64,000 nucleotides of DNA, from the NCBI GenBank assembly GCA_047618365.1, contig JBLHLM010000001.1:9254-73253 (forward strand). Reading direction: 5' to 3'. How positions within the stretch are numbered: the stretch's first letter is position 1; every line of letters begins with the position of its first letter. This document shows positions 19,351 to 25,484 of the stretch, one piece after another. The notes beneath the pieces were generated by a model that worked only from the letters and a program-made list of their open reading frames with translations, made no database searches and had not been told where the DNA came from. The position numbers and the translations under genes were made by a program. The stretch comes from Candidatus Poriferisodalaceae bacterium. Its GTDB lineage: Bacteria > Actinomycetota > Acidimicrobiia > Acidimicrobiales > Poriferisodalaceae.

Positions 19351-20317
19351 TCAGACCATCTTGGTCTGGCGCCCTGCGGACGGCTCGTTTCGGGTGACCC
19401 AGTAGAACAAGATCGCCGAACCGGCGACCAGAAGCGCCGCCGCCCGAAAGGCGGTGGCGTTGCTGCTGTTGTCAGCAAGCCATCCGAGGAGTGGCGGTCC
19501 GAGGATGAAGCCGACGTCGCCGGCGGATCGATAGGCAGCGACGCATTTGCCTCTGACATGTGGTGGAGCGATATCGGCGACGAACGCTGCCGGTGCGGGC
19601 CCGGCTGTTCCAGTCCCAATTGTCATCACGAGGTTGCCGGCGATGAACAAGGCGCTGCCCGTGCTCTGGGCGATCAGCAGGGTGCCGATTCCAGCGGTGA
19701 CTCCCGAGAACACGATCACGGCCCTGCGCCCGAGCCGGTCCGACCCACGCGCTGCTGGCATCAGGGTGAAGAGGGTAAGGACGCCAGTCAGCGTGAAAAG
19801 GCTGCCGAGCGTCGCTTCACCCCAGTTCAGTCGCGGACCTGCGGAGTACAGAGAAACGAGTGTTCCTCGGGTGCCCGCTCTGGTCATGAAGATGGTTGCC
19901 GTCACTAGGGCTAGCGCTCCGAATCGTTTGGAGAGGATGAAACCTCGGAGGGCGCCTGCGGCCGGAATTCCGTTCGCTTCCGTCTGGGCGGGCGATGTCG
20001 ATGAGGTAGATCAGGGCCCCACTCATGTAGAGCGCTGAGTCAGCGCCCGCGACGAAACGCCACAGCAGCAGGGTCCAGATGTTGGCTGCGAAGCCTGAAC
20101 CGATCATCCCGGCCGGAAAGTTCAGCATCAGGCGAGCGAGAGCGAACACCGACAGCATGAAGCCGGCCGCCGCAGCACCGACTCCGAACTCGGCTGCGTA
20201 GCGAGGAATCAGCGGGCAGACGACGCCCTGGCCGGCCATGACCAGCAACGTTGCTCCGCACAACACGAGCAGGTGTTCAGGTTCGCCTAGGCGAGTCATC
20301 CAGTCAGGTCGTTGCAC
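19351..20317 (-). pseudogene. MFS transporter split into two overlapping frames (frameshift near 19986..19993), also shorter than a normal 12-TM MFS
   Basis: ORFs 19817..20317 (LIPRYAAEFGVGAAAAGFMLSVFAL...YLIDIA) and 19351..19905 (GSDRLGRRAVIV..., FVADIAPPHVRGK...GFILGPPLLGWL) are both MFS-like but lie in different frames. After DIA the first frame becomes RPDGSERNSGRRRPPRF. The other frame is open from 20010 downstream. Confidence 0.6.
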
Positions 20318-21578: not shown

Positions 21579-22373
21579 ATGCCCGCATAACAAAGCCACG
21601 AAGTCGACTACGAGGTCTTCGGCGACGATCTGCAATACGTCGAGATCGAACTCGACACGGGTGAGACAGTCATCGGCGAGGGCGGAACAATGATGTTCCT
21701 CGAAGATGGCATCACCTTCGAAACCAAGATGGGCGACGGTTCACAACCCGACTACGGCATCTGGGGCAAGCTCAAATCGGCTGGCAAGCGGGCCATCACT
21801 GGTGAGTCGATTTTCCTGACCCACTTCACGAACTCCGAAAACCCGGGCAAGGTTCGGGCCGGATTCGCGGCCTACTATCCCGGCAAGATTATCCCGATCG
21901 ACCTCGATGAGATCGGTGGCGAAATCATCGTGTAGAGCGATGGGTTCCTCTGTGCAGCCATGGGAATCAAGCTCGACATTGCGTTCCAACGCAAGATCGG
22001 AGCTGGCTTCTTCGGCGGTGAGGGCTTCATTGTTCAGCGCATCACGGGTGTCGGCAAGGTCTTCCTGCACACTGGCGGCTCGATCAAGGCCATGTACCTC
22101 AACAACGAGAAGGTCAGGGTCGATACTGGCTGCCTCGTCGCTCTGCAGCCTTAGCTGCAGTGCGACATCGAGCGAGCCGGCAACTTGAAGTCGATGGTCT
22201 TCGGTGGCGAAAGTTTGTTCCTTGAGACGATCCGGGGCACCGGTTGGGTCTGGTTGCAGTTCCTGCCGTTCTCGCGGGTGGTGGATCGGGTCATGTCGAG
22301 CGGATCGTTCGGCAAGACCGACGGCGAAAGCTCGGTACTTGGCGGCGTTGCCAACCTCTTCGAACGCAGCTGA
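21579..22373 (+). pseudogene. AIM24/TIGR00266 (DUF124) family gene interrupted by three in-frame stop codons
   Basis: One frame reads [51 protein letters not shown]...[16 protein letters not shown]...[121 protein letters not shown]... The stops are TAA 21588-21590, TAG 21933-21935 and TAG 22152-22154. Track ORFs 21690, 21960 and 22185 share this frame. Confidence 0.8.
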
Positions 22374-22428: not shown

Positions 22429-23460
22429 TCAACCGGCGGTGGGGTCGACCAGGATCTTTACTGCCGTTGAGCGTTTGTTGGCGAGGTCGTCGACGGCGCC
22501 GGCGAGCCCATCGAGGGTGACGGTTCCTTGGTGTAGCGGTGCCACTTGGAGACGGCCGTCGTAGACCATGTCGGCGACGATCTTCATCTCGTCGAGCGAG
22601 AACACGATCGATGTGTCGACCGAGATCTCCTTCGTCATCCATTTCATCGGGGAGATGCTGGCGTCACCACCAGTGACCCCGACGATGCACACCGAGCCTC
22701 CGTAGCGAACCATGTCAGCAGCCTGCTGGATCGTCTGGGGAATGCCCGCACAGTCGAACGCGATGTCGGCCCGAAGGTCGCCCGCAGTTGACCGGATGGC
22801 TTCCTGGGCTGGTGGTCCAGGCTCGACGGCGACATCGGCTCCAAGCGAAACGGCCAGTGCTCGTCGAGCCTCGTCGGGCTCGACCACGATGACGTGACCA
22901 GCCCCCGCGATCCGGGCGCATTGGGCGGTGAAGAGCCCGATTGGACCTGCGCCGAGAACGACAACTACGTCACCCACCCGGAGCTTGCTGCGCCTCACCG
23001 CGTGCATCGCCACGCTGGCGGGTTCGATCAGCGCGGCGTCATCGAAGGGCATGTCGGATTGGATCGAGATGCAGCGCTCGCCGCGCAGCTTCATCATCGG
23101 AGCAAAGCCGCCCCACTTCGGGGTGAGGTCACCCCAGTAGTGGCGTTTTGCTGTTCGGCAGTAGGTCGGGAGATCCGCCCGGCACTCGGGGCAGGCACCG
23201 CATCCCGGAGCGAGCCCGCCGGTGACGAGGTCGCCCTCGCTCACGTTGGTCACGTCCTTACCGGCCATCGCGACGTGCCCGACCCATTCGTGTCCGCAGA
23301 CCCCTGACGCGTATGCCCACCCTTCGACGTAGGCATGAACGTCGCTGCCGCAGATTCCACAACGCTGCACTTCGACCACCACCTCATCATCGTCGGGAGT
23401 CGGGTCGTCGAACTCCTTGAGTTCGAGCGTTCCCTTGCCGGTGATAAGTCCTGCGCGCAT
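22429..23460 (-). CDS. zinc-dependent alcohol/threonine-dehydrogenase-like MDR oxidoreductase
   Basis: Trimmed to MRAGLITGKG. RCGICGSDVH, CGHEWVG, CGACPECRADLPTYC and VLGAGPIGL. Confidence 0.85.
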   Translation of the reverse strand: MRAGLITGKGTLELKEFDDPTPDDDEVVVEVQRCGICGSDVHAYVEGWAYASGVCGHEWVGHVAMAGKDVTNVSEGDLVTGGLAPGCGACPECRADLPTYCRTAKRHYWGDLTPKWGGFAPMMKLRGERCISIQSDMPFDDAALIEPASVAMHAVRRSKLRVGDVVVVLGAGPIGLFTAQCARIAGAGHVIVVEPDEARRALAVSLGADVAVEPGPPAQEAIRSTAGDLRADIAFDCAGIPQTIQQAADMVRYGGSVCIVGVTGGDASISPMKWMTKEISVDTSIVFSLDEMKIVADMVYDGRLQVAPLHQGTVTLDGLAGAVDDLANKRSTAVKILVDPTAG

Positions 23461-23537
23461 GTGTCCCCCTGGCGACCCGCTGTCTGAGCTGGGCTGGCGA
23501 TAAGTAGGCACTCAGCATGGACTAGAACCGGAGGTTG

Positions 23538-23885: not shown

Positions 23886-24935
23886 ATGAGCCTTCGGTCT
23901 TCCCGCCTCAACGCTGACAGTTTTGCCGAGCTCCAGGAGCTCTATCACTCGCGTGGATGGACCGACGGCTTGCCGATCGTGCCGCCGACCCCGGATGCGG
24001 TGCAGGGCTGTCTCGACTGGGCGATGCTGCCTGCCGATCATCTCGTCGGGATCGAGCCAGTCCGGGCCAGGGCGATCACCGCCGAGAAGCTTGCGATCAA
24101 CGCTGTCATGGCTGGCTGTCTGCCGATGCACTTCCCGGTAGTGGTCACCGCGATGACGGCGATGCTTCAGGAAGAGTTCTTGCTTCATGGCGCGACCGCG
24201 TCCACCGGCGGTTGCGCGGTGCTGTTGATCGTCAACGGACCGGTCCGTCGCGAACTTGGGATGACCACTGACTTCAATGTGCTCGGCAACTCCGACCGGG
24301 CATCGGCTGCCATTGGCCGAGCGATCCGCCTGGCGCTGATCAACGTGCTCGATGTTCGGCCAGGCGAGATCGATCGCTCGACCCTCGGTCATCCTGGGAA
24401 GTTCAGTTACTGCGTGGCCGAGGACGAAGAAGGATCGCCGTGGGAATCTCTCGCGACCGAACGCCTCGGTGACCCCTATGTATCGGCGGTGACCGCCATT
24501 GCGTCCATGGCACCCCGCCAGATCATGAACGAGTGGACGACCGATCCGCGAGAGATCTGCGAAACCGTCGCTGCGGAGATGCGAGCGAACCAGCTCAACT
24601 ACTCGATCTGGGCCGGCAACTACACGGTGATCCTGCCGCCCCAGCTGAGAGCATCGTTCATCACTGCAGGGTGGTCGAAGGCCGACATCCAAGAATGTGT
24701 GTTCGAGCGGGCTCGCGTCAAGCGAGGTCAGTGGGCCGAAGTCGGCAAGGGTTCTGTAGTGAAAGACCGAGCGGAGCGGGAGTACGCAGCGCTGGGTTCG
24801 CCCGATGATCTGATGATCGTCGCCGCAGGGGGACCGGCTGGCGGATTCGCCTCGGTGATCCCGCCATGGTTGGGAACGAAGAGTCGAGCCTCGACGGTTG
24901 CAGTCGGGGCCTGTGTCGATTGCGAGGTGTCATAG
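23886..24935 (+). CDS. conserved-looking protein of unknown function with C-terminal CxxC, directly abutting the selenoprotein gene
   Basis: 349 aa with globular composition and high GC3, e.g. GWTDGLPIVPPT and HGATASTGGCAVLLIVNGP. It ends GACVDCEVS. Stop TAG 24933-24935 is immediately followed by ATG 24936. Confidence 0.7.
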   Translation: MSLRSSRLNADSFAELQELYHSRGWTDGLPIVPPTPDAVQGCLDWAMLPADHLVGIEPVRARAITAEKLAINAVMAGCLPMHFPVVVTAMTAMLQEEFLLHGATASTGGCAVLLIVNGPVRRELGMTTDFNVLGNSDRASAAIGRAIRLALINVLDVRPGEIDRSTLGHPGKFSYCVAEDEEGSPWESLATERLGDPYVSAVTAIASMAPRQIMNEWTTDPREICETVAAEMRANQLNYSIWAGNYTVILPPQLRASFITAGWSKADIQECVFERARVKRGQWAEVGKGSVVKDRAEREYAALGSPDDLMIVAAGGPAGGFASVIPPWLGTKSRASTVAVGACVDCEVS

Positions 24936-25484
24936 ATGTCTAGGCAGGCAATGTCTGAGTCCGGTTGGGTCGTGCTTGACCCGAGTCATGAGGATCGCAA
25001 GGTTGGTAGCGAGCCAGCCCCCAGGCTGGCGACGCTCGCTGGCACGACTGTTGGGGTGATTTCGAACGGCAAGGAGAACACCCGCCCGTTCTACGACCAC
25101 GTCGAGCGCATCTTGCGTGAGCAGCACCAGGTCGCCGAAGTGGTCCGACGCATCAAAGGCAACTACAGCGCGCCTGCTGAGGACGAGCTGATGGCCGAGG
25201 CCATGGGGTGGGATGCAGTGCTCAGCGGGGTAGGTGATTGAGGCAGTTGCTCGTCGTGCAGTTTGCACGACGCTGTGATTGCGGACCGCCAAGGTGTGCC
25301 CGCTGTGTCGGTCATGACGACCGCCTTTGTTGATGCTGCCGAGGCGATGGCGCGGGTTCAGGGTGTGCCCGATCACCCCTTCGCCATCATTGAACATCCG
25401 ATCTCGAGCGCCGACGAGGAAGGGCTGATTGCCCGTGCGCAGGCTGCCGTGGACCGGATTGTTGAGGTTCTCGTTCTCGCATAA
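24936..25484 (+). CDS. UGSC-motif selenoprotein (in-frame TGA 25239..25241 read as selenocysteine), function unknown
   Basis: Track ORFs 24936..25241 and 25263..25484 are in the same frame, with no stop other than the TGA. Read-through gives ...WDAVLSGVGD-U-GSCSSCSLHDAVIADRQGVPAVSVMTTAFVDAAEAMARVQGVPDHPFAIIEHPISSADEEGL..., 182 codons. A SECIS-like hairpin follows the TGA. Confidence 0.75.
25252..25272 (+). promoter_or_regulatory. SECIS-like stem-loop (8-bp perfect stem, AGUUU loop) 10 nt downstream of the in-frame UGA
   Basis: CGTCGTGC-agttt-GCACGACG read directly. The loop starts 19 nt after the UGA, which is within the spacing I recall for bacterial SECIS elements. Confidence 0.6.

Follow-up and report, generated by a model that had tools for sequence, protein, structure and literature searches.

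A marine Acidimicrobiales population carries an AIM24-family gene of full length that is interrupted by three in-frame nonsense codons, and this gene is very probably a genuine, non-functional pseudogene of the ordinary kind, decaying under normal GC-to-AT pressure. The gene lies in a 64,000-nucleotide stretch, here called the window (G000:C1:9254-73253), of a metagenome-assembled genome (MAG) of 1.645 Mb in 61 contigs that is 57.8% complete, with 0.06% contamination and 61.8% GC. An earlier note on this DNA had called three nonsense codons an odd way for a gene to die, and had offered very recent inactivation, a C-to-T-biased mutational process, or read-through as explanations. The gene structure that it described is borne out below, and each of these explanations is judged improbable.

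Gene structure and the three stop codons

The gene can be read in one frame to a natural TGA terminator, with internal stops at codons 4, 119 and 192 only (Table 1). With X placed at the stops, the read-through product matched positions 1-203 of the 205-position Pfam AIM24 profile (PF01987) with an E value of 5e-62, and scored 98.4 bits against NCBIfam TIGR00266, just above the cut-off of 96.6; the AIM24 profile had this single match across the source assembly. At 58% completeness of the MAG, a second copy of the gene could lie in the part that is missing. At 795 nt the gene is identical in length to six intact relatives (264 codons), and there is therefore no net indel in the window's copy. 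Translation, profile matches and the relatives' length all agree with the earlier description of a full-length, single-frame AIM24-type gene with no frameshift and no other stops. As a gene remnant it belongs to the family both by its full-length profile match and by orthology in length and neighborhood; as a functional protein it does not, the reading frame being interrupted three times. Translation from the conserved ATG would yield Met-Pro-Ala only.

Table 1. Features of the AIM24 locus, in window coordinates.
Feature	Position	Strand	Remarks
MFS transporter pseudogene	19363..20299	-	Residues 8-132 of relatives align in one frame, 192-405 in another
Amidohydro_2 gene (PF04909), intact, 382 aa	20427..21575	+	Stop 3 nt before AIM24 start
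AIM24/DUF124 (TIGR00266) pseudogene	21579..22373	+	264 codons, three internal nonsense codons
TAA, codon 4	21588..21590	+	Gln (CAG or CAA) in 3/6 close relatives, including the two nearest
TAG, codon 119	21933..21935	+	Column is Gln in all homologues compared
TAG, codon 192	22152..22154	+	Close relatives all have Gln; more distant ones Ser, Thr or Gly
Zn-dependent alcohol dehydrogenase family gene	22429..23511	-	Between AIM24 and the 349-aa gene
349-aa protein gene and UGSC selenoprotein gene	23886..25484	+	In relatives directly 3' of AIM24, or of Amidohydro_2 where AIM24 is gone

Relatives were retrieved via the intact upstream gene and proved to be marine Acidimicrobiales MAGs, among them MedAcidi-G3, Tara Oceans bins, 'Ca. 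Microthrix' UBA bins and the sponge-associated Ca. Poriferisodalis. The nearest AIM24 homologues share 75-80% DNA identity and 77-83% protein identity with the window's copy. Like the TIGR00266/AIM24 proteins of Acidimicrobiia (P0001-P0006), the window's copy spans 264 codons and is flanked by Amidohydro_2 upstream and the 349-aa/UGSC pair downstream; it also has the same start as the nearest of these relatives (MPAQ...). No stop interrupts the 24 homologues in synteny or the six closest proteins, whereas the window's copy has three, and it carries replacements at residues that are otherwise invariant. Disabling lesions that these orthologues lack mark the window's copy as a pseudogene.

Comparison with orthologues, which the earlier note had proposed, revealed that none shares the stops, and it points to Gln codons as ancestral. 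At codons 119 and 192, 6/6 of the closest intact homologues have Gln (CAG, with CAA once), and the codon-119 column is invariant Gln over ten homologues from related genomes, in line with the earlier note, which had proposed CAG to TAG at this site. At codon 4 the two nearest homologues, which begin MPAQN..., have Gln; the three close relatives without Gln have Lys, Asn or Glu. Surviving Gln codons in the window's AIM24 gene have drifted from CAG towards CAA. A C-to-T origin from Gln codons fits all three AIM24 stops, at least as judged by the codons of the closest relatives. The same origin had been suggested for a further TAG at 985-987 on the minus strand, in a gene for a two-module membrane protein; this part of the claim did not stand, as the best homologue (G014, 47% identity) has Tyr opposite this TAG, and a C-to-T change at CAG is therefore not indicated there.

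Internal-stop pseudogenes in low-coverage genomes are often assembly artefacts (PMC11017572), and the source is a 58%-complete MAG, so that consensus errors or a strain chimaera masking an intact gene had to be considered. We located population copies via an exact 81-aa ORF fragment ending at the second stop. At least 10 contigs encode this fragment, and we compared five of them, three from JGI metagenome assemblies (3300060905, 3300060880 and 3300060879) and two from Logan assemblies of SRA runs (SRR28416802 and SRR28416798), together representing five samples and two assembly pipelines. They were 99.93-100% identical to the window across 1.1-6.2 kb, and in 5/5 the 795 nt of AIM24 were identical, with all three stops present. 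Three of the contigs have two SNPs elsewhere, and the five are therefore separate assemblies. A scan of JGI metagenome contigs for an exact pattern around stop 2 gave no match. Errors would also have to be reconciled with ~36 further lineage-specific changes in AIM24, yet the adjacent gene looks normal. The stops are largely established as real in the DNA, on the basis of these five assemblies, and the consensus errors that the earlier note had allowed for have next to no probability left to them.

Mutation spectrum and traces of further decay

At nucleotide sites that are invariant in five relatives, the window's AIM24 gene has 36 specific changes. GC>AT changes outnumber AT>GC changes by 27 to 3; on the coding strand there are 12 C>T and 10 G>A changes, and the two strands are therefore equally affected. 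Neither the TC (5'-T) nor the CpG context is enriched among the AIM24 changes (p = 0.55 and 0.85, respectively). The intact Amidohydro_2 gene upstream has the same GC>AT excess (36 versus 5), and GC3 in both genes is 0.77-0.79, compared with 0.87-0.93 in most close relatives. The same bias in an intact neighbor, together with the lowered GC3, points to a lineage-wide AT drift and not to a gene-specific process; the lowered GC3 across both genes indicates that this drift is probably genome-wide. GC-to-AT is the usual direction of bacterial mutation. A similar GC3 drift has occurred independently in the lineage of homologue P0005 (L154/L155).

The earlier note had seen little other visible decay in the gene, which proved too generous. 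Eight more distant homologues supplied the majority residues, from which the window's AIM24 departs uniquely 18 times and its nearest relative 5 times (binomial p = 0.011); among the replacements at otherwise invariant positions are P>T, D>V, G>S, A>E, S>F and Y>C. The 36 nucleotide changes fall 13/9/14 at the three codon positions, and 21 are non-synonymous; in the same taxa, the lineage-specific changes of Amidohydro_2, which served as an intact and constrained control, fall 14/4/32. In a matched four-taxon set this shift has a Fisher p of 0.11-0.15, which alone is not significant. By a mixture estimate, unconstrained evolution accounts for about half of the changes on the terminal branch of AIM24, corresponding to ~4% neutral divergence, or ~30 substitutions over the gene. 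In one of the intact AIM24 homologues, P0004 (L157:1647-2441, GCA_046766215.1), 9/11 unique nucleotide changes are non-synonymous, D>Y and G>V at conserved positions among them; either relaxed constraint or poor contig quality may lie behind this.

These data bear on two of the proposed explanations. The gene could have been inactivated so recently that no appreciable neutral evolution has followed, its extra replacements being normal divergence. The lack of indels, the 83% identity to relatives that persists, the codon-position shift that falls short of significance by itself, and the nearest relative's own departures at 9/120 otherwise invariant columns all speak for such a history; against it, three separate stops would have had to reach fixation, every recovered population contig has them fixed, conserved columns have been hit well beyond the level seen in the nearest relative, and the mixture estimate assigns about half of the changes on this branch to a neutral phase. 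We regard very recent inactivation as unlikely. Targeted or episodic cytosine deamination of this gene, by a deaminase toxin, through lost uracil repair or in association with transcription, is more doubtful still and in our judgment very unlikely. It would account for the C>T changes at all three stops and for the 22/36 lineage-specific changes that are C>T or G>A; however, the balance between the strands, the absence of a context motif and the identical bias in the intact upstream gene, with its lowered GC3, are not what a process directed at AIM24 would leave behind. Nor does it suit the other in-frame stops in the genome, which align to Tyr (at 985, for instance), Trp, Gly, Leu and Ser besides Gln.

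Ordinary decay has next to be judged by whether it can produce three nonsense codons and no indel. Under the observed spectrum, ~3.3-4% of mutations in the relatives' intact AIM24 genes are nonsense, and 36-45% of these arise at Gln codons; the genome-wide expectation is that about half of new stops are TAG. Indels are ~ten-fold rarer than substitutions (PMC6054270). Calculated post hoc for a gene that was picked for looking odd, and assuming ~30 neutral substitutions, ~1.2 stops are expected and the probability of three or more is ~0.12, that of all three lying at Gln codons is ~0.05-0.09, and that of finding no indel is ~0.05 at an indel ratio of 1:10, with ~3 expected, or ~0.2 at 1:20. Three nonsense codons without an indel are thus mildly unlikely, not anomalous.

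We suggest the following course for the ordinary pseudogene that we favor. Selection on AIM24 would have been relaxed once the gene was dispensable; the lineage's GC-to-AT pressure would then have made TAA or TAG out of three Gln codons, in whatever order and over whatever span, and altered several conserved residues, and indels have so far spared the gene. With translation presumably ending after three residues, the AIM24 protein would not be made. The expected end point would be deletion of the remnant, which is the state of 18 related species at the same locus. With ordinary nonsense pseudogenes formed under GC-to-AT pressure, the class surveyed by tools such as Pseudofinder (PMC9336565) and treated in PMC6054270, AIM24 shares disabling mutations in a recognizable gene, as well as signs of relaxed constraint, AT drift and the eventual deletion that is seen in relatives. 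It differs in having nonsense codons only, whereas pseudogene sets from reductive genomes average several indels each (696 indels in 151 pseudogenes; PMC6054270).

Genetic code, read-through and lesions across the genome

The genome uses the standard code. Among 732 long ORFs, TGA is the terminator in 445, TAG in 191 and TAA in 96, and ~23/24 ABC ATPase domains are open. An alternative code, with TGA as Gly or TAG as Gln, was considered and was ruled out by this terminator usage and by the intact majority of genes. Reassignment of TAG or TAA is likewise at odds with the ~14 credible in-frame stops in roughly 600-1000 aligned genes. The search for suppressor tRNAs that the earlier note had proposed found no amber or ochre suppressor (CUA or UUA) among 24 ARAGORN tRNAs from this 58%-complete genome; a tRNA-Sec (UCA) was found. 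Two of the ARAGORN calls in G000 were odd, a tRNA-Asp with anticodon ATC and a permuted tmRNA with the tag AGAQLSHSYCPPEWA; both may be false positives.

Could AIM24 nevertheless still be functional, with a near-cognate tRNA-Gln reading UAA and UAG and restoring Gln three times? All three stops lie at ancestral Gln positions, frame and length are perfectly kept, and a suppressor tRNA could lie in the missing part of the incomplete MAG. Against this stand the homologues, which without exception have sense codons at the three sites; the use of both TAA and TAG, each a normal terminator here; the 0/24 tRNAs that are suppressors; the conserved residues that have been replaced; and the dispensability of AIM24 in 18 relatives. 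If three stops in a row had to be read through at natural efficiencies, hardly any protein would result. We therefore consider a still functional AIM24 highly improbable, and the suggestion of condition-dependent read-through or suppression lacks support on the same grounds. The known form of programmed read-through, exemplified by the in-frame UGA/SECIS selenoprotein 2.5 kb downstream, resembles AIM24 in placing in-frame stops within a conserved frame. In contrast to programmed recoding, the AIM24 stops are not conserved in homologues, are of two types and were found with neither a recoding element nor a suppressor tRNA, and the relatives' residue is Gln, not Cys or Sec; at all three sites the relatives' codons are sense codons, mostly for Gln. 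Useful reading of UAA and UAG by tRNA-Gln or by an undetected suppressor would, if true, explain the perfectly kept frame and length; we give very little credence to it, or to its milder form, a lineage with an unusually low indel-to-substitution ratio in which genes die by nonsense and are then cleanly deleted.

The earlier note had also called for a genome-wide spectrum of nonsense changes. When all ORFs of the complete relative G009 were compared with the source genome by tblastn, the naive count was 140 in-frame stops versus 33 frameshifts. This apparent nonsense excess was rejected, as most of the stops lay in conserved out-of-frame translations upstream of true starts. A six-frame coding test was then applied, in which an event was kept only where the aligned frame outranked the other five on each side; this filter passes 73% of true coding positions. 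There remained 14 stops in ~12 genes (TAG 9, TGA 4, TAA 1) and 6 frameshifts, and the stops align to Gln, Ser, Leu, Phe, Gly, Glu, Tyr, Ala, Met and Trp. This is not a nonsense-dominated genome: its pseudogene load is, as far as these alignments indicate, ordinary, at a few per cent and with lesions of both kinds. Unfiltered tblastn surveys in GC-rich genomes (here 62% GC) overcount in-frame stops ~ten-fold, because out-of-frame upstream translations align well and only one genome is stop-free there. A codon log-odds scan for stops flanked by coding signal yielded 72 candidates, mostly gene junctions or antisense frames, and was not used. Outside the window, an ABC ATPase domain at G000:C9:36003-36456 has a TGA at the Walker A Gly (VV*ENGAGKS) and more TGA and TAG codons downstream, and is another candidate for a multi-nonsense pseudogene.

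The locus across related species

The conserved gene order is MFS (on the minus strand), Amidohydro_2, AIM24, the 349-aa protein and the UGSC selenoprotein. AIM24 is present at this locus in 24 related species, in each as a single HSP with no stops, and is cleanly absent in 18. Where it is absent, the junction from the Amidohydro_2 stop to the start of the 349-aa gene measures 9-12 nt (15 species) or is an AT-rich 86-87 nt (3 species). In a tree of the two flanking proteins the window falls in a well-supported clade (SH-aLRT 99), which holds the 86-87-nt AIM24-less group as well as AIM24-bearing groups. AIM24 has therefore been lost completely at least once among near kin, and the window's copy is the sole broken intermediate seen among the compared loci.

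Two neighbors of AIM24 in the window also depart from this order or state. The MFS transporter gene, 1.3 kb upstream, is broken by a frameshift and a deletion, with ~60 residues missing, and is called as fragments of 136 aa and 160 aa in the population contigs; indels are therefore not lacking in this genome. On the other side, the Zn-dependent alcohol dehydrogenase gene interrupts an otherwise co-directional cluster and is absent at this position from all relatives examined; among NCBIfam models, scyllo-inosose 3-dehydrogenase matches it best, though far under the cut-off.

The earlier note had held that indels and other decay among relatives would mark an old, ordinary pseudogene. Part of that picture is present, in the indel-broken MFS neighbor and in the relatives that have deleted AIM24, but no relative's AIM24 copy is broken. 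One locus thus presents three states, intact in 24 species, nonsense-riddled here and cleanly excised in 18. The case carries little weight as a discovery; it clearly illustrates ongoing gene loss in marine Acidimicrobiales. Since some species keep AIM24 and others have lost it, the Amidohydro_2, 349-aa and UGSC genes do not have it as an obligatory partner, and this narrows the functional hypotheses for that conserved cluster.

Another disrupted gene was observed in a relative, on the JGI 3300010883 contig L155: a DegT/DnrJ/EryC1 aminotransferase gene at L155:6630-7618 is split into fragments of 84, 95 and 101 aa and is likely a pseudogene. IS110 and IS240 transposase genes lie near these fragments.
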